Part shown: piece by piece, positions 1,909-37,823 of the stretch | Position numbering within the stretch: the first letter of the stretch is position 1 | Layout: each line of letters opens with the position of its first letter | Origin: an uncultured Rickettsiales bacterium | GTDB taxonomy: Bacteria > Myxococcota_A > UBA796 > UBA9615 > CAYRNR01 | Assembly (NCBI GenBank): GCA_964639985.1 | Contig: CAZXHG010000011.1 | Coordinates: forward strand, 7,871-71,870 | Direction of reading: 5' to 3' | DNA length: 64,000 nt | Position numbers and translations under genes: made by a program | Notes under the pieces: generated by a model | Seen by the model: only the letters and a program-made list of their open reading frames with translations | The model's database searches: none | Told to the model about the DNA's origin: nothing

Positions 1909-1930
1909 GGTCAGGCTGCCGTGCGTGGCC

Positions 1931-3613
1931 TCACTCGTCCTCTTCGTCCGACTCGGGGGGCACCGGGCGGGGGCCGCCGGCGAGTCGTCGCTCGAAGCCG
2001 TGCCGTGGATCGGCCTCGTCCTCCTCGGCGGTGAGGATCTTGAGCTTCTCGCCCTCGAGCCGCGCCATGAATGCCGTGCACGTGCTGTCCCCTGTGAGGT
2101 TGGTGGCCGTACGGAACATGTCCAGCAGGCGGTCTACGCCCAGCACCAGGGCGATGCCCTCGGTGGGTACGCCGACCGCGGTCAGCACCATCGCCAGGGT
2201 GATCATGCCGGCCCCTGGCACTCCCGCTGCGCCGACCGAGGCGAGGGTGGCAGAGATGATGATCGTGACCTGGTCGGCCACGCCCAGGTCCATGCCATAG
2301 ATCTGCGCGATGAAGATCGCGGCCACCCCCTGGTACAGGGCCGTGCCGTCCATGTTGATGGTGGCGCCCAGCGGCAGTACGAAGCTGCTGACCTCGGGGC
2401 TGACGTTGAGGTTGTCCTCCACGCATTCCTTGGTCACCGGCAGGGTGGCCGACGACGACGATGTGGAGAAGCCAAGCAACATGGCCGGGCGGATCGCCTT
2501 GAGGAACGGGATGAACGGCAGGCCCGCGCCGAAGCGCACGACCGAGCCATAGGTCAACGTCAGGTGCAGCGCCAGCCCGGCCAGCACGACCAGGCCGTAC
2601 ACGCCCAGCGCCAGCAGCACCGATGGTCCGGTGGAGCCCACCACCTTGAACAGCAGCGCGGCCACGCCGTACGGCGCGAGCTTCATCACGATGTGGACCA
2701 GCATCACCATGGCCTCGTTGAGGCGGTCGAACAGGTCCACCACGGGCTTGGACTTGCGCTCCTTCATGAACGTCAGCGCGATGCCCAGCATGAGCGCGAA
2801 GAAGATGATCTGCAGCATGTCGCCGCCGGCCAGCGCCTCGACTGGATTGTCCGGGACGATCGCCAGCATCTGGTCGACGAAGGTCGGCGACTCGGCCGCC
2901 TGCTCGATGGTGTCCCCGGCCGCGGTCTGGTAGTTGGCCAGCAGCGAGGCGCGGTCCTCGTCCGACATCAGCTTGCCGGGCTTGACGATGTTGGCCAGGC
3001 CCACGCCGATGATCAGGGCCATGGCCGTGGTGGCTACGAAGAAGCCGACGGTGCGTGCGCCGATGCGGCCGAGCTTGCGGAAGTCGCCCAGGGAGGCCAC
3101 GCCCACGCACAGGGAGAAGAACACCAGCGGCACCACGATCATCTTGATCAGCGCCAGGAACAGCAGGCCGATCCACTCGGTGGCGTTGACCAGGCCCAGG
3201 CCGATGGGAGCGTAGCGCTTGACCTCGGGCACGGTCTCGGCGACCCACCCCTCGAGCTGTTGATCCGGTGCGACGCTGTCGGCCTCCTTCAACCCGAGCT
3301 TCTTCAGCCGGAGCAGGTCGCCGGTGGAGGGGGTCCAGCGGACCTTCAACCAGGTGGGATCACCGGTGCCGGAGTCACCCGGCTGCTCCTCCACGACGCG
3401 CATCCGGCGGACCCCGAAGCCCAGCGGCATGGGATCACCGCCGGGCGTGGTCAGAACCCGGGCGTCGTCCGCGGTCAGGTCGTCGATCGAATCGATCTCG
3501 GGGTGGACCAGCTCCACGCCGTCGTCGGGAAGCAGGAAGGAGTTGGGCCCGACCAGGAAGCCCAGCACCACCCCGACGGCCATGCCGATCAGGATCTTGG
3601 TGTACAGCTGCAT
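1931..3613 (-). CDS. dicarboxylate/amino acid:cation symporter (DAACS, GltP/DctA family)
   Basis: 560 aa; conserved LIKMIVVPLVF and SSSSATLP hairpin motifs; multiple TM segments; ~100-aa insertion after TM1. Confidence 0.85.
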   Translation of the reverse strand: MQLYTKILIGMAVGVVLGFLVGPNSFLLPDDGVELVHPEIDSIDDLTADDARVLTTPGGDPMPLGFGVRRMRVVEEQPGDSGTGDPTWLKVRWTPSTGDLLRLKKLGLKEADSVAPDQQLEGWVAETVPEVKRYAPIGLGLVNATEWIGLLFLALIKMIVVPLVFFSLCVGVASLGDFRKLGRIGARTVGFFVATTAMALIIGVGLANIVKPGKLMSDEDRASLLANYQTAAGDTIEQAAESPTFVDQMLAIVPDNPVEALAGGDMLQIIFFALMLGIALTFMKERKSKPVVDLFDRLNEAMVMLVHIVMKLAPYGVAALLFKVVGSTGPSVLLALGVYGLVVLAGLALHLTLTYGSVVRFGAGLPFIPFLKAIRPAMLLGFSTSSSSATLPVTKECVEDNLNVSPEVSSFVLPLGATINMDGTALYQGVAAIFIAQIYGMDLGVADQVTIIISATLASVGAAGVPGAGMITLAMVLTAVGVPTEGIALVLGVDRLLDMFRTATNLTGDSTCTAFMARLEGEKLKILTAEEDEADPRHGFERRLAGGPRPVPPESDEEDE

Positions 3614-3644
3614 GGAATCTCCGGGGCCATGTTACCCCGTTTGG

Positions 3645-5585
3645 TCAATCCGTTTTCATGGGCCAGGACACGATGCCTGCGCGGCGGATGTCCGTGAACA
3701 TCAGCCGCTCCTCCCAGCGGGGCAGCCAGAGGAATTCCGGGGCCTGTGCGCCGCTGGTGATCTCGGTGGGCAGTACCGAGAAGATGGCGCCGTCGTCGTC
3801 CAGCAGCAGCACGGACGCGTCCTCGCCGCGCCAGGCCATCCAGATCCCGTCGAAGCGCGCGATGGCGAACGTCCACGCGCGATCCTCGTCCTCGCGCCGC
3901 ACCAGCGTGGACGGATCGATTGCATACGGGCCCACGTACAGCACGCTGCCGTCGTCGGCCAGCGCTGAATAGCGCAGGCGGGTCTCCTGCGGGATCAGCC
4001 CTGCCACGGGCGAGGCCGTGGCGGTCACCGCCGACGAGTCGAGATCGATGCGGTTGACGCGGCCGTCCGCGCTGCGCACCACCCACACCCCGTCCTCGCC
4101 TACCAGGACCTCGAGGCGGCCGGACTCGTCCTTGTCGAGCACGTCTCCGCCCAGGTCCCAGGTGTTCGTGACCGAGCCGTCGGACGGGTCCACCTCGACC
4201 AGCAGGTCGTCTCCGCCGTGGGTCAGCAGCAGCGTGCCGCGGTCCGCGTGGGCCACCATGTCCGACAGGGTCAACGTGACGTTCACCGACAGGCCCAGAT
4301 CGTGCTCGGCCAGGGGCTCGAGGGAGTCGAGATCCAGCTCGTGGAGGTGGGCATTCAGCTGGTCCAGCACCCACAGACGCCCATCGAGGATGGTCGGCAC
4401 CACCGGCCAGTCGAAGGTGACGTCGGCGTGCACCTGCTCCTCGCTCTCGAGGTCGATCCACATCAGGGTGCCGGACAGACGGCCGCTGATGTAGATGCGG
4501 GAGGGCTGGTCAGGGTGGGAGGCCATGGACTCCACGTGCACGCCCATGGGCACGCGGTGGACGATCGCGCCGTCGTCCGGGTCCACGGCCCACAGGTCCG
4601 ACGTCCCCTCGGAGTTCATCCACACCAGGCCGGTCTGCTCGTCGATTCCGCCGAATCCGCTGTTCTTGCCCGTGGGCCAGATATCACCCACCAGCTCGAG
4701 ATCCGCGTCGTAGCGCCGCATCACGCCGCGGTTGGGCTCGTCCGGGCCGATCCGGTCGAGCACCACGAACTCGTCGCCGATGGCGGCCACGTCCCAGTTC
4801 TCGTTGCCCTCCACCCGCTCGTGCGCTTCGTCTGCGTCCACGTCGATCAGACCCACCGAGGTGGTCGAGGACAGGGCGAAGTCGCCGGTGCCGAGGGTGA
4901 CGAGGGTGTTGCCCGTGAGGTGGCCGGTGAACGGCGCAGGGTGTGACTGCAGGATCGACAGGTCCTCGGTGCTGCGCAGGTCGATGCGGTCGCAGTCCAT
5001 GAGCACGGCCACGGTGGTGTCGTCCACGCGCTCCAGCTGCACGGGCTGGTTGGCCAGGTCCTCCTGCAGCTCCACCTCGTCCTGTCCGTTCAACACCTGC
5101 AGCGTGTACGGGCCCCCTGCCTGGCCACCGGCCAGCAGCACGCGGTCGTCGTCCAGCCGCAGCAGGTCGTAGGCCTCGACCATGCCGGTGTCGATGGCCT
5201 GCATGTAGCCGTTGTCGGGGTACACGTGTAGCAACGGTGGCGCACCGGCCCGCAGGACCCACAGGTCGTCCGGGCCGTCTCCCACGATCCGTGTGGCCGC
5301 GTTGGGGGACTCGTAGCGGGGCAGGACTCGCACCAGCTCGGCGGTGTCGAGGTCGACCTCGGCGATGCTGCCCAGCAGGCGCGACACGCACCAGGCGCGG
5401 CGACCGTCACTGTCCACGTCGACGTACAGCGGCAACAGGTGGTTCTCGGTGGCCTCGTCCAGCAGCGCGAATTCGTACGACTCGGGCTTGTCCGGCGGGA
5501 TCAGGGGGGTGTCCGGCTCCTCGCCGTCGCAGGCCAGCAGGGCGGTCGGCAGCACCAGCAGCAGGGATCGCAACAGGGATCGCAT
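3645..5585 (-). CDS. lipoprotein, repeat-rich (beta-propeller-like) hypothetical
   Basis: ATG giving MRSLLRSLLLVLPTALLAC lipobox signal; an upstream GTG at 5597 is an alternative start; ~640 aa acidic repetitive protein. Confidence 0.6.
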   Translation of the reverse strand: MRSLLRSLLLVLPTALLACDGEEPDTPLIPPDKPESYEFALLDEATENHLLPLYVDVDSDGRRAWCVSRLLGSIAEVDLDTAELVRVLPRYESPNAATRIVGDGPDDLWVLRAGAPPLLHVYPDNGYMQAIDTGMVEAYDLLRLDDDRVLLAGGQAGGPYTLQVLNGQDEVELQEDLANQPVQLERVDDTTVAVLMDCDRIDLRSTEDLSILQSHPAPFTGHLTGNTLVTLGTGDFALSSTTSVGLIDVDADEAHERVEGNENWDVAAIGDEFVVLDRIGPDEPNRGVMRRYDADLELVGDIWPTGKNSGFGGIDEQTGLVWMNSEGTSDLWAVDPDDGAIVHRVPMGVHVESMASHPDQPSRIYISGRLSGTLMWIDLESEEQVHADVTFDWPVVPTILDGRLWVLDQLNAHLHELDLDSLEPLAEHDLGLSVNVTLTLSDMVAHADRGTLLLTHGGDDLLVEVDPSDGSVTNTWDLGGDVLDKDESGRLEVLVGEDGVWVVRSADGRVNRIDLDSSAVTATASPVAGLIPQETRLRYSALADDGSVLYVGPYAIDPSTLVRREDEDRAWTFAIARFDGIWMAWRGEDASVLLLDDDGAIFSVLPTEITSGAQAPEFLWLPRWEERLMFTDIRRAGIVSWPMKTD

Positions 5586-5617
5586 GGTCGGGCCCACTCT
5601 ACCATCCGCAGGCGGGA

Positions 5618-6841
5618 TCAGAGCATGGTCTGGGTCATGTCGGGCACGGCGTCGCCCTCTGCGGGCAGGGTGAAGAAGAACGTCGTGCCCTGACCGGGCT
5701 CGGACTCCACCCAGATGGAGCCGCCGTGCTGCTCGACGATCTTCTTGGCGATGGTCAGGCCGATGCCCGTGCCCGGGTACTCGTCGCGGCTGTGCAGCCG
5801 CTGGAAGATCTGGAAGATGCGGTCCGTGGCCTCGGGGTTCATGCCGATGCCGTTGTCCGCCACGCTGAAGGTCCAGGTCTCGTCATCGGTGGTCACCCCT
5901 ACGTGCACCACAGGGGGGGCGTCACCGCGGAACTTGATCGCGTTGGCCACGAGGTTCTGGATCAGCTGCACCAGCTGGCTGCGGTTGCCCACCACGATGG
6001 GCAGCCGGTCCCGGTCCACCCGGGCGTCGCTCTCCTGGATGGCCACCACCAGGTTGGCGGTCACCTGGTCGACCACGGCGCCGAGGTCGACCGCGTCCAG
6101 GGACAGCCCGCCCTGGCCCAGCCGGCAGTAGGCCAGCAGGTCGTCGAGCAGCTGCTTCATGCGCTCCGCGCCATCGAGGGCGAACCCGACGAACAGCTCG
6201 CCGTCCTCGTCCAGTTCGCCGTCGAAGCGCTCCGACAGCAGGCGCAGGTAGCTGGTGACCATGCGCAACGGTTCCTGCAGGTCGTGGGAGGCGGCGAAGG
6301 CGAACTGCTCGAGATCGGCGTTGGCCCGTCGCAGCTCCGAGGCCTGTTGCTCGAGCTCCTTGCTGCGCTCCTTCTCCCAGCGGAGCCGCTCCTCGATGAG
6401 CATGCGCTGGTACTCGCGCTCGCGGCCGATCTCGTCCAACGCGGTGAACTGCAGCACGGTCTGGCGGCCGATGCGCAGCCTCGCCGTGGGCGGAAGCTGG
6501 ACCCGCTGGCGTACCTGGTTGCCGTCGAGGAACGAGCCGTTGGAGCTGCCGAGGTCGCGGAACCAGAACATGCCGTTGTGCATGCGCAGGGAGGCGTGGG
6601 CCCGGGAGATGGTGCTGTCGGCGAACACGAAGTCCGCCTCGTCGCCGCGACCGAGGATCCCGCCGGCGCCGCCCACGTAGATCACCCGTCCGACCTCGGG
6701 CCCGCTCATCACCGTCAGCGTCGCGCCGACGGTCTCGTGGGCTGCCCGTTCGCCGCTCTCGGCGACCTCGCGGTTCTCGACGGACGTCTCCTCTTCGCGG
6801 AGGTCCTTGAACCGGGTCTTCCAGCGTACCCGATCGGTCAT
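5618..6841 (-). CDS. FHA-domain sensor histidine kinase (FHA-HisKA-HATPase_c)
   Basis: N-terminal FHA fold (GRxxxxDxxxxDxxISRxHA); H-box FAASHDLQEPLR; G-boxes; alternative GTG start at 6862. Confidence 0.8.
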   Translation of the reverse strand: MTDRVRWKTRFKDLREEETSVENREVAESGERAAHETVGATLTVMSGPEVGRVIYVGGAGGILGRGDEADFVFADSTISRAHASLRMHNGMFWFRDLGSSNGSFLDGNQVRQRVQLPPTARLRIGRQTVLQFTALDEIGREREYQRMLIEERLRWEKERSKELEQQASELRRANADLEQFAFAASHDLQEPLRMVTSYLRLLSERFDGELDEDGELFVGFALDGAERMKQLLDDLLAYCRLGQGGLSLDAVDLGAVVDQVTANLVVAIQESDARVDRDRLPIVVGNRSQLVQLIQNLVANAIKFRGDAPPVVHVGVTTDDETWTFSVADNGIGMNPEATDRIFQIFQRLHSRDEYPGTGIGLTIAKKIVEQHGGSIWVESEPGQGTTFFFTLPAEGDAVPDMTQTML

Positions 6842-6872
6842 GGCCTCTCTCCCGCGACGCACATTCTAGGCC

Positions 6873-6897
6873 ATCTCCGGCGGATTTGTCTCCGGAG
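6873..6897. promoter_or_regulatory. inverted repeat TCTCCGG-N11-CCGGAGA in the divergent FHA-kinase/decarboxylase intergenic region
   Basis: 7-bp perfect inverted repeat read directly in the 244-bp divergent spacer. Confidence 0.25.
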
Positions 6898-7105
6898 AGG
6901 CGAATCTCGGGGCCAAGCGGCGGAGGGCGGTGAACAGCCGCTCGAAGTCGGGCTGTGAGATGAGCTGGCGGTGCTCCACGGCCAGGACCGGCGTGGTACA
7001 GGTGGATCGCGCACAATGGGGCGGGTTTCGACACACCGGCCTCCCGGTTCGACGGTAGCGCCGTCGCAGCGGGGGGGACACCCCTTCGGACCGGGAGGTG
7101 CACGG

Positions 7106-8524
7106 ATGAGCGACGGCTACCACATGACCCCCGACCAGTTCCGCCAGCTCGGGCGGACCATGGTGGACGTGGTCGCGGACTACATGGAGCAGGTCGAGCA
7201 CTTCCCGGTGCAGTCGCCCGTGGAGCCGGGCTCGGTGCGCGCGGCGCTGCCGGACGGGCCCCCGACCGTCGGCGAGTCCTTCGACGCGGTGTTGCGTGAC
7301 GTGGCCGAGGTGATCATGCCCGGCCTGACCCACTGGCAGTCCCCCAACTTCTTCGCCTATTTCCCGGCGAACACGTCCGGACCGTCGATCCTGGGCGACC
7401 TGCTGTGCGCAGGCCTGGGGGTCCAGGGCATGCTCTGGTCGACGAGCCCGGCGGCCACTGAGCTGGAGACGCACGTGCTGGACTGGCTGGTGGAGATGCT
7501 GGATCTGCCGGCGAAATTCCTCTCCAGCGGCGCTGGAGGCGGCGTGATCCAGGACACGGCGTCGAGCGCGACGCTGTGCGCGCTTCTCACGGCCCGGGAA
7601 GGTGCCACCCGTTTTTCCGGGACCTCGGATCTCGTGGTCTATGCGTCGGCCGAGGCCCACTCCTCGGTGGACAAGGCGGTCCGGATTGCGGGGCTGGGGG
7701 AGGAGCAACTCCGTCGCATCCCGGTGGATTCGCGGCTGGCCATGCGTTCCGATGCCCTGGCCAAGGCCATGCGCGATGACGTGGATGCGGGGCGCACGCC
7801 GTGTTTCTGTGTGGCCACGGTCGGGACGACGTCTACCCACGCCCTCGATCCGGTGGCCGAGATCGGCGAGGAGTGCGAGCGCCACGGTGTGTGGTTGCAT
7901 GTGGACGCAGCCATGGCGGGTACGGCCGCGCTGTGTCCCGAGTTGAGGTTCGTCCACCAGGGGCTCGAGCTCGCGGACAGCTACTGCTTCAACCCGCACA
8001 AGTGGATGTTCACCGGGTTCGACTGCGATTGTTTCTACGTGGCCGACCGGGCGGCGCTGATCCGGACCCTGAGTGTGCTCCCGGAGTACCTGCGCAACCG
8101 TGCGACGGAGTCGGGAGCCGTGATCGACTACCGGGACTGGCACATCCCGCTGGGCCGGCGGTTCCGGGCGCTCAAGCTGTGGTTCGTGATTCGCCACTAC
8201 GGGGTCGAGGGGTTGCGGTTCCACGTCAGGCGCCATGTGGAGCTCGCCCGGGATTTCGCCGCCTGGGTCGACGAGGATCCCCGATTCGAGCTGGAGGGCG
8301 AGCCCCCGTTGAATCTCGTCTGCTTCCGCGCGTCAGGCGGCGACGAGCTGAACCAGCGCCTGCTCGATGCCCTGAATGCCTCGGGCAGGTTGTTCCTGAC
8401 ACATACCCGGGTCGGGGGAGCGCTGACGTTGCGGCTGTGCGTTGGCCAGACGAACACGACGCTGCGCCATGTCCGGGCCGCCTGGGACCTCGTCCGGGAC
8501 ACGACCCATGAGCTGACTCGATGA
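7106..8524 (+). CDS. PLP-dependent aromatic-L-amino-acid decarboxylase (group II)
   Basis: SxNPHKW PLP-lysine motif; full-length DDC/TyrDC-like fold; ATG at 7106 preceded by GGGAGG. Confidence 0.85.
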   Translation: MSDGYHMTPDQFRQLGRTMVDVVADYMEQVEHFPVQSPVEPGSVRAALPDGPPTVGESFDAVLRDVAEVIMPGLTHWQSPNFFAYFPANTSGPSILGDLLCAGLGVQGMLWSTSPAATELETHVLDWLVEMLDLPAKFLSSGAGGGVIQDTASSATLCALLTAREGATRFSGTSDLVVYASAEAHSSVDKAVRIAGLGEEQLRRIPVDSRLAMRSDALAKAMRDDVDAGRTPCFCVATVGTTSTHALDPVAEIGEECERHGVWLHVDAAMAGTAALCPELRFVHQGLELADSYCFNPHKWMFTGFDCDCFYVADRAALIRTLSVLPEYLRNRATESGAVIDYRDWHIPLGRRFRALKLWFVIRHYGVEGLRFHVRRHVELARDFAAWVDEDPRFELEGEPPLNLVCFRASGGDELNQRLLDALNASGRLFLTHTRVGGALTLRLCVGQTNTTLRHVRAAWDLVRDTTHELTR

Positions 8525-9828
8525 GACTGTTGCTAGTCAATCCTGCACGTGTCGGCCGGGGCCAGTCCTCGGTACGGTTCGTCGACGCAACGCCGCTGGC
8601 GCTGCCCACGTTGCATGCGCTCACACCGGACGACGTGGACGTGCGTGTCGTCGACGAAGGGCACACCCGCATCCCGTTCGACGAGCCCTGGGATCTCGTC
8701 GGTATCACCACCATGCTGCACGTGTGGCCTCAGGCCAGGAGCATTGCAGCCAGGTTTCGCGAGCGGGGCGTGCCCGTGGTGCTGGGCGGCATGTTTCCGT
8801 CCCTCTGGACCGAGCAGGTGACCGATCACGTGGATGCGGTCGTCGCCGGTGAGGCCGAGGCCGTCTGGGGTGACGTCGTCCGCGACGCCGAGCGCGGGAG
8901 GTTGCAGTCCCTGTACCGCTGTGAGCACCGCGTGGACATGGCCGACGTGCCCTTCATCCCGCCGGAGTGCTTTCCCCACGACGATCCCTACTTCAGCATC
9001 GAGAGCACGCGGGGCTGTCCCTACGCCTGTGATCACTGCACGGTCACGGCCCTGTACGGCGCCAGCTTCCGGCACCGACCCATCGATCACGTGGTGCGGC
9101 AGCTGGACGCATTCGAGGGGCGCTGGATCTCCTTCGTGGACGACAACATCACCGGTCATCCGCGGTACGCCCGCGAGCTGTTCACGGAGATGATCCCGTT
9201 GCGACGCAAGTGGAATGGTCAGTTCTCACTGCACTATGCGCAGGACCGAGCGTTGATCGAACTCGCGGCCGAGAGTGGGTGTCAGATGCTGTTCACCGGC
9301 ATCGAGTCGCTGAACGTCGACAACCTCCGAGCCGTCAACAAGCGGGGGGCTGACCCGGGACGGTACGCAGATTGGATCCGGACCGTGCACGATGCGGGCA
9401 TCGCGGTCTACGCGTCATTCATGTTCGGGTTCGAGCAGGACGACCCGGATGTGTTCCGCCGCACGCTGGATTTCTGCGAGGACAACGAGATCGAGCTGGC
9501 CCTGTTCTCCTCGGTCGTCACCTATGAGGGGGGAGATTTCCACCGTCAGCTGGTCGAGGAGGGGCGCCTGTTCGAGACCGATCAGGCCCGGTTCAATGGC
9601 CAGTACGCGACCTATCACCCTCGCAACATGACCGCGACCCAGCTGGAGGAGGGGCTGCGGTGGTCGTGGCGCAGGTTCTACTCACGTGACAGCATCCGCT
9701 CGCGACTGGCCCGCGTGCTGGGCCAGGAGAAGGCCGTGGCGACCGTCGACCGTGTGGGTGGTCTCAGTCGAGGTGAGGTGCTGCTGGCGCTGAACGCGGC
9801 ATTTCGGCGGGCAGCCGAGAGGTTCTGA
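8521..9828 (+). CDS. B12-binding (class B) radical SAM enzyme
   Basis: CPYACDHC CxxxCxxC cluster after an N-terminal Rossmann-like B12-binding region; ATGA start/stop overlap with the decarboxylase. Confidence 0.85.
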   Translation: MRLLLVNPARVGRGQSSVRFVDATPLALPTLHALTPDDVDVRVVDEGHTRIPFDEPWDLVGITTMLHVWPQARSIAARFRERGVPVVLGGMFPSLWTEQVTDHVDAVVAGEAEAVWGDVVRDAERGRLQSLYRCEHRVDMADVPFIPPECFPHDDPYFSIESTRGCPYACDHCTVTALYGASFRHRPIDHVVRQLDAFEGRWISFVDDNITGHPRYARELFTEMIPLRRKWNGQFSLHYAQDRALIELAAESGCQMLFTGIESLNVDNLRAVNKRGADPGRYADWIRTVHDAGIAVYASFMFGFEQDDPDVFRRTLDFCEDNEIELALFSSVVTYEGGDFHRQLVEEGRLFETDQARFNGQYATYHPRNMTATQLEEGLRWSWRRFYSRDSIRSRLARVLGQEKAVATVDRVGGLSRGEVLLALNAAFRRAAERF

Positions 9829-11091
9829 TCAGCGACGCTTTCGCGTGACCAGCGCAAAAAGCGCTCCTCCGGCGATGAGCGGGAGCAGCGTGAGGAGGAC
9901 CGCGATGCGCTGGCTGCCCGTTGCGGAGGCCACGAGACCGAACAGCAACGGCCCCGCCACGGTCGAGGACTTGGTGACCAGGGCGTACAGCCCGAACGAG
10001 AGTCCAGCGGAGTCCTGTGGGTACAGCCGGGAGTACCAGGCCCGCATCAGCGCCTGGGTCGAGCCGAGAACCCCGGCGCCGAGCAGTGAGACCGTTGCGT
10101 AGTGAGCCGCGGTGGAGGAGGCGGCCAGACCAGCCAACAGCAGACACCAGGCTCCGACGGTCGCCAACAGCACCGGACGTGTGCCGAACCTCCGGGCGAG
10201 GCGACCGGCCAGCGCCGTGGCCGGGAAGGCCAGCAGCTGCACCGACACGAAGATCACGCCGATCGTCCGGATTGGCAGTTGCAGGGTCTCGCGGCCGAAG
10301 AGGGCCGAGAAGAACATGACGGTGACGATGCCTTCGTTGATCAGCCAGAAGGCGAGCAGGGTCTTGAACAGGGTCGGCCTGGCGACCGCGCGCACCGCCG
10401 CGCCGAGATCCAGGCCGAGTCGACCTGATTCGCGCGGCAGGAGCCGCACGGCGACCGCGGCGAACACGCCGAAGAACACCGCGGTCACCCACAGTCCCGG
10501 AGCAGCCGGGGTCAGCGAATTGCCCTGGACCAGTAGAACCAGCGCCAGGCAGACCACGCCGCCGAGGTAGCCGAATCCCCAGGCAAACGTCGACGTGCCG
10601 GCGCGGTCGTCGCCGAGGTGGGAGAGGTACGAGTCGCAGAGGGCGACGGACAGCACGTACAGCGCGTGCGTGGCGACGAACGTGATGCCGACCAATGCAG
10701 CCGCGGAGTTCGTCCTGCTTGCCAGCACCGCGAGCGCAAACACCCCCGAGACCGCCAGCAGGACGACCGTGCCGAGCACCGCCCGGCGAGATCGCCGGTC
10801 GGCAGCATATCCGAGGAGTGGCGCCGTCACGCCAGCGACCACCACGGACGCAGAAACACACAGACCCCACCAGAAGTCCGCGCGGCCGTCGTCGACGAGC
10901 AGTTGCTCGCGGAACCACAACGGGAACAGGAACATGCCGAACACGACCACGTATCCGGAGTTGGCGAAGTCGTAGAGGAAGAACCCCCAGCGACCCTTCC
11001 TGTCCGCAGCTGTGGCCATGTGGCTCGACTCGACTCCCGCGGTTGCGTCCGTGCCTGGAGCTGGTGTGGTTCCACGCACCGTCAGCTTCAT
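9829..11091 (-). CDS. MFS transporter, UMF1/Atg22-like family
   Basis: WGFFLYDFANSGY signature and 12 predicted TM segments; alternative starts at 11130 and 11019. Confidence 0.75.
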   Translation of the reverse strand: MKLTVRGTTPAPGTDATAGVESSHMATAADRKGRWGFFLYDFANSGYVVVFGMFLFPLWFREQLLVDDGRADFWWGLCVSASVVVAGVTAPLLGYAADRRSRRAVLGTVVLLAVSGVFALAVLASRTNSAAALVGITFVATHALYVLSVALCDSYLSHLGDDRAGTSTFAWGFGYLGGVVCLALVLLVQGNSLTPAAPGLWVTAVFFGVFAAVAVRLLPRESGRLGLDLGAAVRAVARPTLFKTLLAFWLINEGIVTVMFFSALFGRETLQLPIRTIGVIFVSVQLLAFPATALAGRLARRFGTRPVLLATVGAWCLLLAGLAASSTAAHYATVSLLGAGVLGSTQALMRAWYSRLYPQDSAGLSFGLYALVTKSSTVAGPLLFGLVASATGSQRIAVLLTLLPLIAGGALFALVTRKRR

Positions 11092-11136
11092 CTTAAGCTC
11101 GCCTCTCGCATGGCGCGCATCCGCGGGCAACCAACG

Positions 11137-12075
11137 TCATGGTGGCTGGCCGCGCACGAGGGCCCGTGCGCTCCAGGCCGGAGGAGGGAACGTGTACCTC
11201 GGGAACCGAACCCGCGCCGCTCCACGGCGCCATCGCCGCGAAGCCCTGGTGTAGTCATCCCTGACTCCTCGGAGCTCGTCTCGGTAGTCCCCCCACACGG
11301 CCACGTCCGCAGCGTGGCACACGGGCGCGGGGCGGCGTTCCGGCCGCCTGCCTGGTCGACCGTGCGGGTCCTGGTTCCTGATGCGTGCCACACCCAGCGC
11401 CCGCGAGCCGTTCTTGCGGTGCATTTGCCGGGTCCGCCTCTCGATGCGTCGGATCACTCGCCTGAACCAGGCTCGTTGCTCGTCCACCGTCTTGTCGGCC
11501 AGGAACGGCGGTGACATGAGGTGGATCTCGTAGCGAGTCGCGTAGTCGTACCTGCCAATGCGTTCACCTCGGCGCCTTGCTCTGCTCTCGGCCGTGCGAT
11601 CGAACCAGGTGCCGCGGAGGGGCTCGCCCTCGAGCACCGCCTTGACGCTGTTGACCCCAGGCCACTGGCAGGGCCGGTTGATCAGTCCCTCCTTGCATCC
11701 CTGCTCCAGCACGTCCTCGATTCGCTCGCCGAGCGCCTCGTCGTCGAGCACGGCGGCGGCGGAGAACCGCTTGCTCCACACGCTCTCTTCCCAGCTGTGG
11801 AGTCTGCCCACTTCCTTGGCGAGGTTGCCCTTGAAGAAGCACATGAACTCCGACTGGGTCACGGAGTCCGGGATCCACACGAGCATGTGGATGTGGTTGG
11901 ACATCACGTGGATCGCTATCAACCGCACCGGGTAGTACTCCATGGCCTTGCCGAGTACGCCGACAACGAGTTCATTGAGCTCCTCGGACGGCCTCAGCAG
12001 ATACCGCCGCTGCACTGCCCGGCAGGTGATCTCGACGATCGAACCAGGCTTGAAATAACGGATTGGGCGTCCCAT
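11137..12075 (-). CDS. IS200/IS605-family Y1 (HUH) transposase-like protein (RAYT-like), possibly domesticated
   Basis: HIHMLV HuH motif and Transposase_17-like core; 312 aa with Arg-rich tail; no paired TnpB or terminal inverted repeats seen. Confidence 0.65.
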   Translation of the reverse strand: MGRPIRYFKPGSIVEITCRAVQRRYLLRPSEELNELVVGVLGKAMEYYPVRLIAIHVMSNHIHMLVWIPDSVTQSEFMCFFKGNLAKEVGRLHSWEESVWSKRFSAAAVLDDEALGERIEDVLEQGCKEGLINRPCQWPGVNSVKAVLEGEPLRGTWFDRTAESRARRRGERIGRYDYATRYEIHLMSPPFLADKTVDEQRAWFRRVIRRIERRTRQMHRKNGSRALGVARIRNQDPHGRPGRRPERRPAPVCHAADVAVWGDYRDELRGVRDDYTRASRRWRRGAARVRFPRYTFPPPAWSARALVRGQPP

Positions 12076-12146
12076 TCACCCCAACCTTGGCAAGGTTCGT
12101 GCCAGGGGCGACGTGTAACGTTCGTGGAGATTGACGAGCAGGCGAC

Positions 12147-12186
12147 CGTTCGATTTCCGGACGGTGCGTTCGATTTCCGGACGGTC
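12147..12186. repeat. tandem 2 x 20-bp direct repeat CGTTCGATTTCCGGACGGT(G/C)
   Basis: read directly; noncoding spacer between the transposase-like gene and the REC-EAL gene. Confidence 0.8.
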
Positions 12187-12187
12187 T

Positions 12188-12233
12188 GGGAAAACGGGTG
12201 GCACCGGGGTGGATTGGGAAAGCGGGTGGCACC
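12188..12233. repeat. two copies of GGGAAA(A/G)CGGGTGGCACC spaced 28 bp apart
   Basis: read directly; the 17-mer GGAAAACGGGTGGCACC recurs inside the cyclase gene at 29252-29268. Confidence 0.75.
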
Positions 12234-12313
12234 CGAAAAAAGCGGCTGTTCTAAGAACCTGCCCGATACCGGACAGTGTGATGGTGCTCTATCATCGCGA
12301 TGAGGGGTCATCC

Positions 12314-13456
12314 ATGAGCACGTCTCGAGTCCTGGTCGTCGACGATGAACGAGCCATCCGCCGTGGCATTGCGCGGGTGCTGGAGAGGCACGGATTCGAG
12401 GTTGCCACCGCGAGCGATGGTCAGTGTGCTTCGGAGTGGTTGGACGACCATGGGTGTGATGTGGTCGTGTGCGATATCAGCATGCCACGGCTGGATGGGT
12501 TGGGGCTGTTACGCCACGTTTCGCGGTTCGACCTGGACATCCCGGTGGTGTTGATCACGGGCGCGCCCACGCTGGAGTCGGCGATCCAGGCGATCGAGTA
12601 CGGAGCCTTCCACTACCTGACCAAGCCCTTCGAGCCCCGCGAACTGCTGAAGACGGTGGTGCGGGCCGCCCATCTGCGGCGTATGGCCTCGCTGAAGGCG
12701 CAGGCGCTGGCGCTCTCCGGCCTGCCCGGGGGGCGGGCCGGCGACCTGGGCGCGCTGACCGCGAGTTTCGAGCGGGCGCTGGGGTCACTTTGGATGGCGT
12801 ATCAGCCCATCCTGCGGGCCTCCGACGGCAGCGTGATGGGGTACGAGGCGCTGATGCGCACCGAAGATCCCGGTCTCCCGCACCCGGGGGCCATGCTGGA
12901 TGCGGCCGAGAGGTTGGCTCGCTTGCCGGAGCTCGGACGGGCCGTGCGCTCCCGGGCGGTCGGGCCGATGATTGACCAGCCGGGCCTGCTGTTCATCAAT
13001 CTCCACCCCCGCGATCTGGACGACGAGAACCTGTGGTCCGTCGAGGCACCGCTCACCAGCATGGCGGAGCGGACGGTGCTGGAGATCACGGAGCGGGCCT
13101 CGCTGGAGAACGTGCGCAGCGTGCGCAAGCGGGTCGAGGCGTTGCGGGACCTGGGCTTCCGCATCGCGGTCGACGACCTCGGAGCCGGGTACGCGGGCCT
13201 GACGAGCTTTGCCTCGTTGCAGCCTGATTTCGTCAAGTACGACATGAGCCTGGTCCGCGGTGTGCACCGGGATCCGGTGCGGCAGAAGTTGATCCGGTCG
13301 ATGACCGATCTGTGCGTGGAGATGGGGATCGAGGTCGTGGCCGAGGGCATCGAGACGCCCGAGGAGCGAGATGTGCTGGCGAAGCTGGGGTGCCACCTGC
13401 TGCAGGGCTTCCGCTTCGGAAAGCCCGGCCCTCCATTCCCCGAGGTGACCTGGTAG
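12314..13456 (+). CDS. response regulator with EAL c-di-GMP phosphodiesterase domain (REC-EAL)
   Basis: REC VLVVDDE...D; EAL motifs YEALMR, EITE, DDLGAGYAGL, KYDMSLV; ATG 12314 after GAGGGG. Confidence 0.85.
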   Translation: MSTSRVLVVDDERAIRRGIARVLERHGFEVATASDGQCASEWLDDHGCDVVVCDISMPRLDGLGLLRHVSRFDLDIPVVLITGAPTLESAIQAIEYGAFHYLTKPFEPRELLKTVVRAAHLRRMASLKAQALALSGLPGGRAGDLGALTASFERALGSLWMAYQPILRASDGSVMGYEALMRTEDPGLPHPGAMLDAAERLARLPELGRAVRSRAVGPMIDQPGLLFINLHPRDLDDENLWSVEAPLTSMAERTVLEITERASLENVRSVRKRVEALRDLGFRIAVDDLGAGYAGLTSFASLQPDFVKYDMSLVRGVHRDPVRQKLIRSMTDLCVEMGIEVVAEGIETPEERDVLAKLGCHLLQGFRFGKPGPPFPEVTW

Positions 13457-13480
13457 GACGGGCGAGAGGGCGGGGACCTG

Positions 13481-15916
13481 ATGAAAGACCTCGAGACGTT
13501 GATCCTCGAGAACGAGGACTGGTTGATGGAGCGCGTGCTGAGGTACGCGCTGGACCGCGGGTATTCGAAGTACACCTCGACGCTGGTCGAGGCCTGGAGA
13601 CTCTCGATCCAGGGAATCTCCGGGGCCTTGGTCACGGCGATCCGAGCCAGCGGCGGGGACCTGGAACTGGGGCCGGACGACGACTACACGAGGGACCCGG
13701 CCATGGCCTTCGGCATCGAGGAAGCGCGGCGTCACCGCGAACGCGGGATCGCGCCGCCCATGTTCCTCGGGTTGCTCAAGTACTACCGACAGACCTACCT
13801 CGACCTGATCGATTTCCAGGATCTGGACCAGGAGGTGGCTTGCCGGTGGCGAGACACGTCGAACCGGTTCTACGACCGCCTCGAGCTCGGGCTCTCCCAG
13901 GAATGGGCGATCGGCGGAGGCCAGGGGCGCCTGGACGAGGTACGGGCACGACACCGGGAGATCGTGAACGAGAAGAACAAGTACCTCACGCTGTTCGAGA
14001 GCCTGCGCATACCGGTCATGCTCGTGGACCAGGCCCTTCATGTCGTGGGGGCCAATCGTCACGCGGCCGAGACCTTTCCACCGCTCTCGGCCTGGGCGGA
14101 CAAGTATGCGGACAGGCCCCCTGCTCCCCACCCCCTCCCATTCCTCGCCGACCAGATCGAAGAGATCGCCAGGGCGGGAATCGAGGCCGTCGACGTGGAG
14201 TGTCGACTGGCGACCGGCGAGGATCAGCGCTGGTATCAAGCGCATATCTGTCCGATGGTCGACGTGAGCCAGAAGTTCGATGGTGCCGTGATAGCCCTGC
14301 ACGACGTATCGCACAGGCGGGACAACGAGGAGCGGCTTCGCCGCACCCGTGCCGAGCTCTCGGAGCAGGTGGACGAGCGGACGGCCGCGCTGGCCGAGAC
14401 CGCCGAGCGCCTGGCCGAGGCGCAACGGATCGGACGCATGGGGAACTGGGACTGGAACATCCTCACCAACGATCTGGTGTGGAGCGATGAGATCTACCGG
14501 ATCTTCGGCCTGCAACCCCAGGAGTTCGGTGCCAGCTATCCGGCGTTCATCGAGCGTGTACATGCAGAGGACAGGGAGCGCGTCGAGCGGGCGGTCGCGC
14601 GCGCCGTCGATGGAGAGATCGACTACGCGATCGACCACCGCATCGTGCTCCCCGACGGGCTGGTGCGGACCGTGCACGAGCAAGGCGAGGTGTTCCGCGA
14701 TGGTGGCGGCCAGCCGGTCCGCATGGTCGGAACCGTGGTCGACATCACCGAGCGGCAGCTGCTCGAGGAGCAGCTGCGCCAGTCGCAGAAGATGGAGGCC
14801 GTGGGCCGGCTGGCGGGCGGCGTCGCCCACGACTTCAACAACATGCTGCAGGCGATCCTGATGCACCTGGGCTTCGCGGCCGACGACCTCGCGACCCCCG
14901 AGCAGCGCGAGGAGGATCTCGAGGAGATTCGCAGGGCCACCGAGAAGGCCACGGAGCTCACCCGGCAGCTGCTGGTGTTCAGCCGCCGCCAGGTGCTGCA
15001 CCTCGAGCGGATCGACCTCGACGAGTTGCTCGAGCACATGTCACGGATGCTGCGACGGCTGCTCGGTGTGGATATCGAACTGCACTACGAGCCCTCCGCG
15101 GACCTGGGTACCGTGCGCGCCGACCGGGGCCAGCTCGAGCAGGTGATCCTCAACCTGTGCCTCAACGCGCGCGACGCCATGCCCGACGGCGGCCGGCTGA
15201 CCCTCGATTTGCGCAACTGCCTGCTGGACTCGGTGTATCGCCAGAGCCACCCCTGGGTCGCGCCGGGCGCCATGGTCCAGCTCTCCGTCTCCGATACCGG
15301 CTGCGGCATGAGCAACGAGGTCCAGGCACAGATCTTCGAGCCCTTCTTCACGACCAAGGGCCCCCAGGAGGGCACCGGGCTGGGGCTGGCCACTGCCTGG
15401 GGCGTGGTCAAGCAGCACGAGGGGTTGATCCACGTGTACAGCGAGCCCGGCCAGGGCAGCACCTTCCGGGTGTACCTGCCCCTGGACGAGACCCCGGACG
15501 AGACCTGGACCGGATCGGGGGAGGAGGGCGTGTACACCGGCGGCAGCGAGACGCTGCTGGTGGCCGAGGACGACCCTGGCATCCGCACGGCGCTGGAGCG
15601 AGGGCTCACGCGCGCAGGCTACACGGTGATCCTCGCCTGCGACGGGCAGGAGGCGCAGGGGCTCTTCGACCAGCACCGCGACACCATCGCGATGGCCATA
15701 CTCGACGTGGTCATGCCCGAGGCCAGCGGCCGCGAGGTGTACGACCACATCCACCTGCGGGCTCCGCGCCTGCCGGTGCTTTTCAGCAGCGGCTACAGCT
15801 CGTCCTCGATCCACAAGCAGCAGATCCTCGACCGGCGCAAGGAGCTGATCGAGAAGCCCTACGACATGCGCGAGCTGCTGGGCAGGATCCGGGATCTGCT
15901 GGACCGGGTGGACTGA
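13481..15916 (+). CDS. PAS-domain hybrid sensor histidine kinase (PAS-HisKA-HATPase-REC)
   Basis: PAS repeats, H-box HDFNNMLQAI, G1/G2 boxes, C-terminal receiver; 24 bp downstream of the REC-EAL gene. Confidence 0.85.
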   Translation: MKDLETLILENEDWLMERVLRYALDRGYSKYTSTLVEAWRLSIQGISGALVTAIRASGGDLELGPDDDYTRDPAMAFGIEEARRHRERGIAPPMFLGLLKYYRQTYLDLIDFQDLDQEVACRWRDTSNRFYDRLELGLSQEWAIGGGQGRLDEVRARHREIVNEKNKYLTLFESLRIPVMLVDQALHVVGANRHAAETFPPLSAWADKYADRPPAPHPLPFLADQIEEIARAGIEAVDVECRLATGEDQRWYQAHICPMVDVSQKFDGAVIALHDVSHRRDNEERLRRTRAELSEQVDERTAALAETAERLAEAQRIGRMGNWDWNILTNDLVWSDEIYRIFGLQPQEFGASYPAFIERVHAEDRERVERAVARAVDGEIDYAIDHRIVLPDGLVRTVHEQGEVFRDGGGQPVRMVGTVVDITERQLLEEQLRQSQKMEAVGRLAGGVAHDFNNMLQAILMHLGFAADDLATPEQREEDLEEIRRATEKATELTRQLLVFSRRQVLHLERIDLDELLEHMSRMLRRLLGVDIELHYEPSADLGTVRADRGQLEQVILNLCLNARDAMPDGGRLTLDLRNCLLDSVYRQSHPWVAPGAMVQLSVSDTGCGMSNEVQAQIFEPFFTTKGPQEGTGLGLATAWGVVKQHEGLIHVYSEPGQGSTFRVYLPLDETPDETWTGSGEEGVYTGGSETLLVAEDDPGIRTALERGLTRAGYTVILACDGQEAQGLFDQHRDTIAMAILDVVMPEASGREVYDHIHLRAPRLPVLFSSGYSSSSIHKQQILDRRKELIEKPYDMRELLGRIRDLLDRVD

Positions 15917-15958
15917 CCTCGCGGCACGCGATATGTCGAACTCTGCCGATCCGGGGAG

Positions 15959-17152
15959 CTACTCGGCGACCACGTCCATGAACATCTGGGTCAGCTGGGC
16001 GTGTCCGTCCGGGTTGGGGTGGATGCAGGTGAAGTCGAACCACTCGGCGGTGTTGGCGCCGCGGTAGCACGGCGCGGTCGGATCGTCGGCGTTGAAGCCG
16101 TGGCCGCAGAACTCCTCCAGCGCGAAGATCATGTCGACTTGATTATCCACGGCGATCGACATGAACTCCTCGTTGGCGTGGATGACCATCTCGGCCAGCT
16201 CGTCGGGATCGTCCCAGGGTGCGCCGAATCCTGCCAGCGCGGCCGCGGGGCAGGCGTCGGTGTCGCCGGTGCCGTCCGTGAACTCGAACATGTTGGCGAA
16301 CACCACGTACACGCCGTTGGGGAAGCGGTCCGGCGGGTCGAAGAACCACTGCACGGACTCGCGGAGGAGCTCGGTGAACTCGTAGACGTCGTCCCAGATG
16401 TCGGCGTAGGGTACGCCGTCGAGGCCATCCTGGGTGATGTTGGCGATGTCGTTCCCGCCGATGGTCATCACCACCAGCGTGGTCTTGTGCCGCTCGTCTT
16501 CGGGGATGCAGTCCTCGATCTGGGAGCCGTCCTGCATCAGGTCGTCGGTGCGCGCGCCCCACTCGGAGCAGGCGGCGAAGTCCCCGGACTCCTGCACCAG
16601 CGGCGTGCCGTCGAACACGTTGACCATGTCCCACAGCGCGCCGGGCGGCTCCAGGCCGAACTGCACGGCCAGCTCGTCGGCGAGCGTGGCGCGGTAGTAG
16701 TCGCTCGAGGACCATGGCGGTGTGCCGGTGGTCACCGAGTCGCCCACGAACACCACCCGCTCCACGCCCACGATGTCCTGGTGGTCGGTGCCGTAGCAGT
16801 GGCTGCCGACCGCGGGGCCGAACTGGTCGTAGTCCGGGCCCATCGGAGGCGCGTTGACGAACGCGTTGGCGTAGCACTCGGTGACGGTCAGGTCGGGCTC
16901 GCCGCCGCTGGTGTCGTCGTCGCCGACGTCCTCCGTGTCGTCGTCGGTGACGTCGTCATCCACGTCGTCGTCGTCCGCGTCGTCGTCGTTCGCGTCGTCG
17001 TCGTCTCCGATGGGGGTGTCGTCGTCGTCCGCCATCGAGTCGTCGTCCCCCGCGGGGGGGCCGTCCCCGGGCGGCTCGTCACCCCAGGTCGTCTCACACC
17101 CGCACACCAGCAATCCCGCGCAGAGCGCACCCAGCAACGTCCGATGATCCAT
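15959..17152 (-). CDS. secreted SGNH/GDSL-family hydrolase lipoprotein with poly-Asp linker
   Basis: lipobox LLVCGC; GDSV block VFVGDSVT; C-terminal DxxH; 60-aa Asp-rich tract. Confidence 0.75.
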   Translation of the reverse strand: MDHRTLLGALCAGLLVCGCETTWGDEPPGDGPPAGDDDSMADDDDTPIGDDDDANDDDADDDDVDDDVTDDDTEDVGDDDTSGGEPDLTVTECYANAFVNAPPMGPDYDQFGPAVGSHCYGTDHQDIVGVERVVFVGDSVTTGTPPWSSSDYYRATLADELAVQFGLEPPGALWDMVNVFDGTPLVQESGDFAACSEWGARTDDLMQDGSQIEDCIPEDERHKTTLVVMTIGGNDIANITQDGLDGVPYADIWDDVYEFTELLRESVQWFFDPPDRFPNGVYVVFANMFEFTDGTGDTDACPAAALAGFGAPWDDPDELAEMVIHANEEFMSIAVDNQVDMIFALEEFCGHGFNADDPTAPCYRGANTAEWFDFTCIHPNPDGHAQLTQMFMDVVAE

Positions 17153-17173
17153 GTCCCTGTCTCCTTCCCCTCG

Positions 17174-17827
17174 TCAGGCCCCGAAGCCCGTCAACCCGGG
17201 CATGCGTCCGCGGTACAGGCCGTCCACCAGCGTGGCCAGCTGCTTGAGCGCGTCCACGCCCTTCCGGGTCCGCTCCGGCTCCTGGTAGATCCCGGCCACG
17301 GCCAGGCCGGTGAGCACGGCGAACGCGAACTGTGGCGTCTGCCGGTAGATGGCGTCGATCGAGCCGGAGCGGGGGAAGATGTCCTGGTACAGCCGGCGGA
17401 CCCCCTGCTCGAACTCGGAGATGACCTCCCGCACGCTGGCCCGCAGCGCCGGGTCGGTCCGCGCCGCCACCACCAGCTCCAGCCACGCGTAGTGGCTCGG
17501 CCCCGAGAACGACGACCACAGCTGCTCCATGGCCCAGGCCGCGCGGTCCGCCTCCACGGGCAGCTCGGAGAACGCCGCCTCGAAGTCCGCGAGCTGTCGC
17601 TGCAGCACGAAGCCGACCGCGGCCGCCACCAGGTCCGCCCGGGTGGGGTAGTGGTGCAGCATGGCCCCGCGGGACAGGCCGCAGCGCCGCAGGATCTCCG
17701 GTGTGGAGGTGCGCGCGTAGCCGAGTTCGACCAGGCAGTCGAAGGTCGCGGTCAACAGGCGCGCGCGCGTGGCTGCGCTGCGCTCCTGCTGGCGGTTGCC
17801 GTTGCTCTTCGGGTTGGCTCGGGTCAT
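17174..17827 (-). CDS. TetR-family transcriptional regulator
   Basis: N-terminal HTH typical of TetR/AcrR; 217 aa; 21 bp upstream of the SGNH hydrolase on the same strand. Confidence 0.85.
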   Translation of the reverse strand: MTRANPKSNGNRQQERSAATRARLLTATFDCLVELGYARTSTPEILRRCGLSRGAMLHHYPTRADLVAAAVGFVLQRQLADFEAAFSELPVEADRAAWAMEQLWSSFSGPSHYAWLELVVAARTDPALRASVREVISEFEQGVRRLYQDIFPRSGSIDAIYRQTPQFAFAVLTGLAVAGIYQEPERTRKGVDALKQLATLVDGLYRGRMPGLTGFGA

Positions 17828-17828
17828 G

Positions 17829-17846
17829 ACAGTCAGCGCTGACTGT
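17829..17846. promoter_or_regulatory. perfect 18-bp palindrome ACAGTCAGCGCTGACTGT, putative TetR operator O1
   Basis: abuts the TetR start codon; perfect dyad symmetry. Confidence 0.55.
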
Positions 17847-17878
17847 TGTCTGGTCGGGCGCCCGAGTCAATGAAAAAA

Positions 17879-17894
17879 AGTCAGCGCTGACTGT
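17879..17894. promoter_or_regulatory. second copy AGTCAGCGCTGACTGT, putative TetR operator O2
   Basis: 16-bp palindromic core identical to O1, 50 bp upstream. Confidence 0.5.
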
Positions 17895-18017
17895 ATTATC
17901 ATCGGCCTCGGCGATCACCGGGGGCGGTCGTCGCGAGTGTTCCCTGGCGCGATCTTGCCGAACCGACTCCTCGCGATCCGGCCCACGGGGACGCACGGCT
18001 CCAGCCGAAGCGCCGGA

Positions 18018-18632: not shown

Positions 18633-18833
18633 GGGATCTCCCTCGTCCGGTCCACCTTAGCACCGGGGTTTTCTCCGCTCCCGGGGTGTTTTTTTTCTCA
18701 CAACCTGTTCGGATCTCCCCACAACCAGTGAAACGCGCACGGCGATCACCCGGGCCGGGATCCGCGTGATGAGCGCCCGGCGGCGAGAGGAGCAGGGACC
18801 TTGTCGGCATCTGCACTGTTCGATTCCGAGGAG

Positions 18834-20640: not shown

Positions 20641-20813
20641 TCCGGGAGGGCAAGACCCACCAGATCCCGACGGTGATCCAGACCGGCAAGCGGGAGGGGA
20701 TGATGTCCCTGGACGAGGGCCTGATGGATCTGCTGCGGCGGCAGGCGATCTCCGCGGAGGAGGCGTACCGCGCGGCGATCCACAAGGAGACATTCGCCAG
20801 GTTCGTGTTCTGA
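20586..20813 (+). pseudogene. remnant of PilT/PilU twitching-motility ATPase C-terminus (last ~75 aa), +1 frame relative to the REC gene
   Basis: GRVAAVEILVSTPALANLIREGKTHQIPTVIQTGKREGMMSLDEGL matches the conserved PilT C-terminal block; no upstream ATPase core. Confidence 0.55.
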
Positions 20814-20822
20814 GTCCCGGCC

Positions 20823-37816: not shown

Positions 37817-37823
37817 CGTCGTC

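Follow-up and report, generated by a model that had tools for sequence, protein, structure and literature searches.

A 64,000-nucleotide stretch of contig CAZXHG010000011.1 from an uncultured Rickettsiales bacterium (GTDB Myxococcota_A; assembly GCA_964639985.1, positions 7,871 to 71,870), here called the window, carries three closely packed genes. They encode a decarboxylase of aromatic L-amino acids (AADC; 7106 to 8524, + strand, 472 amino acids), a radical S-adenosylmethionine enzyme of an uncharacterized conserved clade with an N-terminal Rossmann-like (B12-like) domain (rSAM; 8521 to 9828, + strand, 435 amino acids), and an ATG22/UMF1-family permease of the major facilitator superfamily (MFS; 9829 to 11091, − strand, 396 to 420 amino acids). 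A preliminary description had taken these genes for a minimal cassette that makes, C-methylates, and exports an aromatic amine. The comparisons reported here favor, with a probability of about 55%, a lineage-conserved AADC-transporter neighborhood into which an unrelated rSAM gene was recently inserted; that the locus serves to make a methylated aromatic amine is improbable. The genes are of known kinds in a lineage-specific arrangement, and the three-gene cassette fails the test of co-occurrence.

We surveyed 80 genome loci with relatives of the rSAM (33 to 59% identity, flanks of up to 10 kb) and 80 metagenome loci from other phyla with orthologs of the AADC. Neither an AADC gene nor a window-type MFS gene was found at any of the 80 rSAM-relative loci, and a window-type rSAM or MFS gene was missing from all 80 AADC-ortholog loci. 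Four contigs with rSAMs 77 to 78% identical to the window enzyme were likewise without a match to the AADC, the MFS, or the kinase encoded next to the AADC. In these contigs, the rSAM gene lies in the company of an amino-acid permease/Usp and a PFL-like enzyme, of an FHA protein and DUF4340, or of GH123 and a metallophosphatase. The trio occurred only in the window species and in a sibling at 84% identity, in the order AADC-(X)-rSAM-MFS. In the sibling, an unrelated gene of 456 amino acids sits between AADC and rSAM, and the gene for a 650-residue protein (p650) follows that for the FHA-domain kinase. Because the entire neighborhood is kept in this sibling, from an N6-methylase gene to a PAS kinase gene, its synteny does not discriminate between the models.

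The conserved unit appears to be the AADC and MFS genes, together with those for the FHA kinase and p650, and the rSAM gene appears to have been inserted in the window species and its sibling only, since a syntenic metagenome locus of a more distant relative, found via its MFS gene (L181), keeps the four-gene block without the rSAM. The proteins of the block share 60% (p650), 68% (FHA kinase), 71% (AADC), and 68% (MFS) identity with those of the window, and the block has survived the replacement of the adjoining 15 kb. L181 further carries an AP-endonuclease-2-fold gene and orthologs of window genes located at 26 to 34 kb. Between AADC and MFS it has a gene for an 83-residue TM2 protein, and no match to the rSAM was found in its 21 kb. 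A 78% identical rSAM relative is present on another contig of the same metagenome (L089) with similar coverage. In all, the AADC-MFS adjacency was inspected in three related genomes. Of the proposed cassette, the pairing of AADC and exporter persists in a relative sharing about 70% identity, and the rSAM, kept in the 84% sibling and missing from the syntenic L181, is not a conserved partner by either survey.

Across 26 distant members of the rSAM family, 133 positions are at least 92% conserved, and the window rSAM departs from the family at 15 of these. Two relatives that are not linked to an AADC (P0003 and P0004) depart at 17 to 18 of the 133 positions and have all substitutions of the window enzyme but M91. 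We had considered a neofunctionalized, AADC-linked rSAM and rejected it, as no signature was seen: apart from M91, the departures are common to relatives without AADC linkage.

The decarboxylase is predicted to be a complete AADC-type enzyme and a member of the DDC/AADC family. It matched PF00282 with 371.7 bits (E 4.5e-111; gathering score 27), covering positions 1 to 374 of the 375 in the profile. The lysine that binds pyridoxal 5'-phosphate (PLP) lies in the motif NPHKW (residues 296 to 300, nucleotides 7991 to 8005) and aligns to K303 of DDC, in agreement with the earlier assignment to the group II PLP decarboxylases. The histidine that stacks on PLP (HSSV, residues 185 to 188, nucleotides 7658 to 7669) aligns to H192 of DDC, and the aspartate that binds the pyridine nitrogen (HVDAA, residues 265 to 269, nucleotides 7898 to 7912) aligns to D271. 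We sorted the enzyme as a decarboxylase and not as an aldehyde synthase because its catalytic loop holds a tyrosine (PEYLRN, nucleotides 8081 to 8098, aligned to Y332 of DDC) in place of the phenylalanine of the aldehyde synthase AtPAAS (6eei, PEFLKN). Plant enzymes have a glycine/serine position that decides between indolic and phenolic substrates (bioRxiv 10.1101/404970). The window enzyme has glycine there (IPLGRRFR, nucleotides 8144 to 8167), as do DDC and AtPAAS, whereas plant tyrosine decarboxylases (TyDCs) have serine (IALSRRFR).

Searches of the PDB pointed the same way, the top hits spanning E 7e-143 to 1e-117 and other group II enzymes reaching about 1e-45 or weaker. The best matches were plant TyrDC/PAAS (6eei, E 7e-143), pig DDC (1js3, E 1e-135), and human AADC (3rbf, E 4e-132). 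Aromatic enzymes ranged from E 1e-110 to 7e-143, compared with 1e-25 to 1e-46 for GADL1, CSAD, GAD, and the diaminobutyrate (DABA) decarboxylases. The aromatic type proposed for the enzyme was therefore retained, as DDC, TyrDC, and tryptophan decarboxylase (TDC) matches stood far above those to Glu, Asp, or DABA enzymes and no clustering with the nonaromatic group was seen. With the characterized enzymes of EC 4.1.1.28 (1JS3, 3RBF, and the plant TDC/TyDC structures 6EEW/6EEM) it shares a full-length alignment (E 1e-132 to 1e-143), the PLP lysine, the histidine, the aspartate, the catalytic-loop tyrosine and, with DDC and TDC, glycine at the selectivity position. It differs from them in belonging to a bacterial environmental family. 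This family is very conserved and widespread, with 65 to 73% identity across Anaerolineae, Terriglobia, Planctomycetota, Nitrospinota, and Bipolaricaulia.

A different gene recurs beside that of the AADC in other lineages. Of the 80 AADC-ortholog loci (L092 to L171), 27 have a gene for a conserved class I S-adenosylmethionine (SAM) methyltransferase of 254 amino acids (PF08241) immediately upstream of the AADC gene and in the same orientation; upstream sequence of 1 kb or more was available at only 59 of the 80. The gap between the two genes is typically 25 to 140 nucleotides; in L159, for example, the methyltransferase gene occupies 738 to 1502 and the AADC gene 1608 to 3023. The class I methyltransferase is a real, recurrent partner of the environmental AADC family, and its gene is missing from the window. 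The pairing is a hint that soil bacteria make methylated arylethylamines, by a route other than the one first proposed for the window. At one further locus (1 of 80), L146, an unrelated rSAM of 412 residues, whose B12-binding domain is a true one (PF02310, 41.7 bits), is encoded on the − strand (5565 to 6803) and converges on the AADC gene from about 0.5 kb downstream, a second and independent juxtaposition of an AADC and a class B rSAM.

The radical SAM superfamily assignment of the window rSAM rests on PF04055 (49.1 bits, E 9e-13; gathering score 29.5) and on the cluster motif CPYACDHC (nucleotides 9016 to 9039), whose cysteines, C166-x3-C170-x2-C173, are invariant in 30 homologs. An AlphaFold (AF2) model built on 30 homologs (pLDDT 89.7, pTM 0.88) has an N-terminal Rossmann-like domain followed by the rSAM barrel, the domain order of class B enzymes. 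The class B assignment of the preliminary description held in predicted architecture and fell short at the B12-binding domain (PF02310), which reached 25.8 bits, under the gathering score of 32.1, and is weak or faint in relatives too. All 16 NCBIfam matches were far under their cut-offs, among them the best one, to TIGR04479 (PhpK family; 77 bits versus 600), NF033070 (23.8 versus 500), and the rSAM model TIGR04072 (51.7 versus 360). A sequence search of the PDB returned only MgmA (9ccb) and AprD4 (6fd2), at E 1e-6 to 1e-7. The best fold match of the model was AprD4 (6fd2; full-length TM-score 0.77, Foldseek E 2e-21), followed by MgmA, TsrM, CysS, MiaB, OxsB, and TokK. AprD4 binds no cobalamin despite a Rossmann-related domain and its place in B12-rSAM similarity networks (2026 review, PMC12931638). 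Because PF02310 stayed sub-threshold, the methylase families of NCBIfam were not reached, and the best fold match works without cobalamin, the former label of B12-dependent methylase describes a possibility for this predicted protein and not a finding.

Comparison with characterized enzymes leaves the rSAM apart from each of them. It resembles AprD4, the radical SAM 1,2-diol dehydratase of apramycin biosynthesis, in combining an N-terminal Rossmann-like domain with the barrel, but the two share only 19 to 20% identity (phmmer E 1.4e-6), and the window locus has neither an aminoglycoside context nor a partner of the AprD3 type. With the class B methylases TsrM, MgmA, CysS, and TokK, of which TsrM methylates C2 of its substrate tryptophan, it shares the domain order and fold matches at TM-scores of 0.57 to 0.69; it differs in sequence (13 to 18% identity), in the sub-threshold B12 domain, and in the methylase models left unreached, and it lacks the domains that TsrM and TokK have at their C termini. 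The clade itself is tight, the window rSAM being 47 to 59% identical to members from Nitrospirota, Auribacterota, Actinomycetes, Chlamydiota, Nitrospinota, and Omnitrophota, and is set apart from relatives at 40% identity or less; the wider superfamily comprises 1,575 cluster representatives at E ≤ 1e-30. No fusion of an rSAM to a PLP decarboxylase was found among the top 150 cluster representatives. Relatives at 36 to 44% identity include fusions to MMPL/RND transporter or STAS domains (P0438, 1,210 amino acids; P0071 to P0082), the MMPL-rSAM fusion being a 36% relative.

Fatty-acid-synthase-like chemistry was the only recurring theme in the neighborhoods of the rSAM clade. The genes involved encode ketosynthases (KS), ketoreductases (KR), dehydratases (DH) of the FabA/ApeI-like type, and alpha/beta-hydrolases. 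They are arranged as KS-FabA-rSAM-KS-KR-DH-KS in L009 (1 to 6037), as rSAM-KS-KS-Methyltransf_20 ... DUF1571 in L010 (5474 to 13036), as GH3-Methyltransf_20-three DUF1571-two hydrolases-rSAM in L173 (1 to 7305), and as DH-KR-DH-KS-KS-hydrolase-rSAM with a convergent glycosyltransferase family 2 (GT2) gene in L175 to L178 (697 to 8600 in L175 and L177). Members in such type II fatty acid synthase (FAS-II) contexts branch early in a neighbor-joining tree that carries no support values. B12-like rSAM genes are present in ladderane-type FAS-II clusters (PMC13459092, PMC2649909), and the early clade members resemble these in lying among KS, KR, FabA-like DH, alpha/beta-hydrolase, and GT2 genes; they differ in that TIGR04072 is far below its cut-off and in that the window has no such genes near the rSAM. 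By analogy of context, the FAS-II-embedded rSAMs are candidates for an uncharacterized modification of ketoacyl lipids. A search of the window for the FAS-II, GH3, DUF1571, GT2, and PFL-like neighbors that rSAM orthologs have elsewhere found none of them.

The remaining contexts of rSAM relatives have nothing to do with this theme. In Auribacterota, the rSAM gene is followed, with an overlapping or adjacent start, by a gene for a polytopic membrane protein of 650 to 665 amino acids (L001, 4326 to 6311; L002, 9286 to 11235; L013, 11286 to 13283) with a TPR-like C terminus and without a Pfam match, the copies being 40% identical to each other. That p650 of the window (3645 to 5597) might be this 650- to 660-residue membrane/TPR protein was rejected, as BLASTP gave no similarity. 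We also rejected a conserved histidine-kinase partner of the rSAM, since the kinases in L005, L006, and L007 have unrelated sensor regions (CHASE, dCache, and PAS) and are alike only in the kinase core. In L089, genes for a tandem-Usp protein and an amino-acid permease precede that of the 78% identical rSAM, and the gene after it (1994 to 4813) encodes a PFL-like glycyl-radical enzyme of 940 residues whose N-terminal region is SCP2/alkyl-sulfatase-C-like.

The transporter matched PF11700 (ATG22) with 59.5 bits (gathering score 24.1) as well as PF07690, hydropathy indicated about 11 to 12 hydrophobic segments, and relatives carry the JGI label "UMF1 family." The convergence of this ATG22/UMF1 gene on the rSAM gene was found as first described, the rSAM stop codon (TGA, 9826 to 9828) abutting that of the MFS gene (TCA on the + strand, 9829 to 9831). 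Bacterial ATG22/UMF1 members are not known to have a tested substrate. Amino-acid decarboxylases are paired with transporters in TyrDC-TyrP, HdcA-HdcP, and GadB-GadC, and the window is like these systems in that a decarboxylase gene stands beside a membrane transporter gene across related genomes. It differs in that the transporter is an ATG22/UMF1 MFS protein and not an APC-type antiporter, in that the genes are convergent and not co-transcribed, and in that no acid-stress context is evident; exchange by the MFS protein is a putative activity.

Translation signals and base composition were also inspected at the locus, where the G+C content of the window is about 70%. This value and the many two-component, sigma-54, and Ser/Thr-kinase genes may point to a Myxococcota-like genome. 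The AADC gene is preceded by a Shine-Dalgarno sequence (GGAGG) 8 nucleotides upstream of its ATG, and the rSAM start agrees with the family N terminus MRxLLxNP. For the MFS gene, ATG at 11091 or 11019 is a likelier start than TTG at 11130. The AADC and rSAM genes share an ATGA stop/start overlap at 8521 to 8524 (+ strand), read directly in the sequence as reported before. It indicates a probable co-transcription of the two genes, not necessarily a shared pathway. Such four-base overlaps are frequent in the window (19154/19157, 30762/30765, 42236/42239, and 58066/58069). The G+C content at third codon positions (GC3) is 0.83 to 0.86 in AADC, rSAM, and MFS, compared with 0.90 to 0.96 in flanking genes. 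Directly upstream of the MFS gene lies a gene for an IS200/RAYT-like Y1 transposase (11137 to 12075, − strand, 312 amino acids; PF01797, E 5.8e-8) that scored 58 bits with NF047646, under its cut-off of 80. This gene is missing from both the 84% sibling and L181, which points to a local rearrangement beside the AADC-rSAM-MFS genes. A run of five genes (6971 to 13456; AADC, rSAM, MFS, RAYT-like, and a response regulator [RR]-EAL gene) has a GC3 of 0.82 to 0.86 against flanking values of 0.90 to 0.96.

Under the favored reading of a conserved AADC-transporter neighborhood with an inserted rSAM gene, the AADC would convert an aromatic L-amino acid to an arylethylamine and CO2, and glycine at the selectivity position would fit Trp, Phe, or DOPA-type substrates. 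The MFS protein, the only conserved membrane neighbor of the AADC, may carry the amine out or exchange amine for amino acid, by analogy with decarboxylase/antiporter pairs. Co-transcribed via the ATGA overlap, the rSAM would catalyze a clade-wide reaction of its own that is independent of the AADC. Since the early branches of the clade lie within FAS-II-like clusters, this would probably be a radical reaction of an acyl- or lipid-type substrate, and cobalamin or methyl transfer would not be required. Several observations weigh against this reading. Two species share the order AADC-(X)-rSAM-MFS, and the AADC-MFS adjacency is seen in three related genomes only and could be inherited synteny. If L181 and L089 belong to one organism, AADC and rSAM are unlinked there, and cooperation in trans may be conceivable. 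The 4-bp overlap and the common lower GC3 of AADC, rSAM, and MFS fit co-expression and possibly a shared history. Finally, the suggested lipid role of the rSAM draws on about 5 of 16 distinct neighborhoods, none of them in this clade.

Other explanations were weighed. Complete functional independence of the three genes, with the AADC-MFS adjacency as inherited order and an unrelated MFS cargo, seems unlikely. It would accord with the convergent MFS gene, which is transcribed separately and lies downstream of the RAYT-like gene in the window, with the TM2-domain gene between AADC and MFS in L181, with the absence of a window-type MFS from the AADC-ortholog loci of other phyla, and with the lack of any known tested substrate of a bacterial ATG22/UMF1 member; the survival of the four-gene block in L181 next to 15 kb of replaced sequence speaks against it. 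We regard as unlikely that an rSAM from a deeply conserved clade, tied to lipid clusters in other phyla, was captured into an aromatic amine operon, where, translationally coupled to the decarboxylase, it would now modify the arylethylamine or couple an acyl chain to it, the product being exported by the MFS. If this were true, the locus would make an unreported amine-derived metabolite, and a biogenic-amine pathway would have taken up radical chemistry very recently.

The model first put forward, in which the amine made by the AADC is C-methylated by a co-translated, cobalamin-dependent rSAM and exported by the ATG22-type MFS, we hold to be distinctly improbable. The ATGA overlap, the aromatic type of the AADC, the conservation of the trio in the 84% sibling, and the class-B-like architecture with its structural matches to TsrM, MgmA, CysS, and TokK are all compatible with it, and an AADC with a methylase may be a recurring theme, as at the 27 methyltransferase loci, whose role an rSAM could have taken over. 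Against these stand the absence of the rSAM from L181 and from the 80 AADC-ortholog loci and that of the AADC from about 90 rSAM-family loci, the sub-threshold B12 domain with distant methylase models and a cobalamin-free best fold match, the lack of lineage-specific substitutions accompanying the new context, and the unrelated gene between the enzymes in the sibling. A literature search for clusters of an AADC with a cobalamin rSAM gave no paper that matched the whole query. We consider it very unlikely that the rSAM was recruited for a nonmethylating task, such as dehydration, cyclization, or C-C coupling of the arylethylamine or the joining of amine and acyl groups to an N-acyl arylethylamine-type product. 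The translational coupling and tight packing of a newly arrived gene, the AprD4-like fold, and lipid-type contexts that include a GH3-type amide-forming ligase in L173 would suit such a task, but the 25 kb around the operon hold no acyl-activating, KS, or acyl carrier protein gene, the conserved sites of the rSAM are as in its unlinked relatives, and the context argument proceeds by analogy.

If the insertion reading, that of a passenger rSAM gene beside a conserved AADC and transporter, is correct, the locus is an ordinary one with a member of a widespread AADC family and not a cryptic biosynthetic cluster. The uncharacterized rSAM clade with its FAS-II-embedded early branches and the AADC-methyltransferase pairing are worth more than the original claim. 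In line with what had been stated before, no polyketide synthase or nonribosomal peptide synthetase gene was found by Pfam among the approximately 30 largest open reading frames of the window.

On the other side of the AADC gene, a 243-bp intergenic region (6863 to 7105) separates it from the divergent gene for an FHA-HisKA-HATPase sensor histidine kinase (5618 to 6862, − strand; Pfam matches). Beyond the kinase gene lies that of p650 (3645 to 5597, − strand), a predicted lipoprotein of 650 amino acids with a weak PQQ-like beta-propeller signal (weak PF13360 match). The preliminary description had named the kinase as a candidate regulator; it is kept near the AADC in L181, but nothing ties it to control of the AADC operon, and that proposal is unsupported. 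The inverted repeat described for the spacer is present, and the length given, 244 bp, was one base pair too long. Repeats were located at 6847 to 6858/6888 to 6899 and at 7040 to 7055/7083 to 7098, and the latter (7040 to 7098, CCTCCCGG...CCGGGAGG) is predicted to be able to sequester the Shine-Dalgarno sequence of the AADC gene; an alternative pairing lies at 7061 to 7076. We rejected the idea that a riboswitch or leader lies upstream of the AADC gene, as the z-score of the spacer fold was only −2.2, no Rfam match was obtained, and the hairpin is not kept in L181.

Two further regions of the window were recorded. The stretch from 12131 to 26417 is dense in signaling genes (RR-EAL, a PAS hybrid kinase, an RR, an Hpt protein, an RR-kinase, and a multi-PAS hybrid kinase of 1,864 amino acids), and a single Pkinase/FGE-sulfatase gene takes the place of the whole stretch in L181. 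At 36359 to 43822, about 27 kb from the rSAM gene and unlinked to it, a thiolase-like gene (TLP1) and a gene for a PMT_2 GT-C membrane protein, together with AMP-binding enzyme and alpha/beta-hydrolase genes that overlap by 4 bp, recall the partners found near rSAM orthologs elsewhere.

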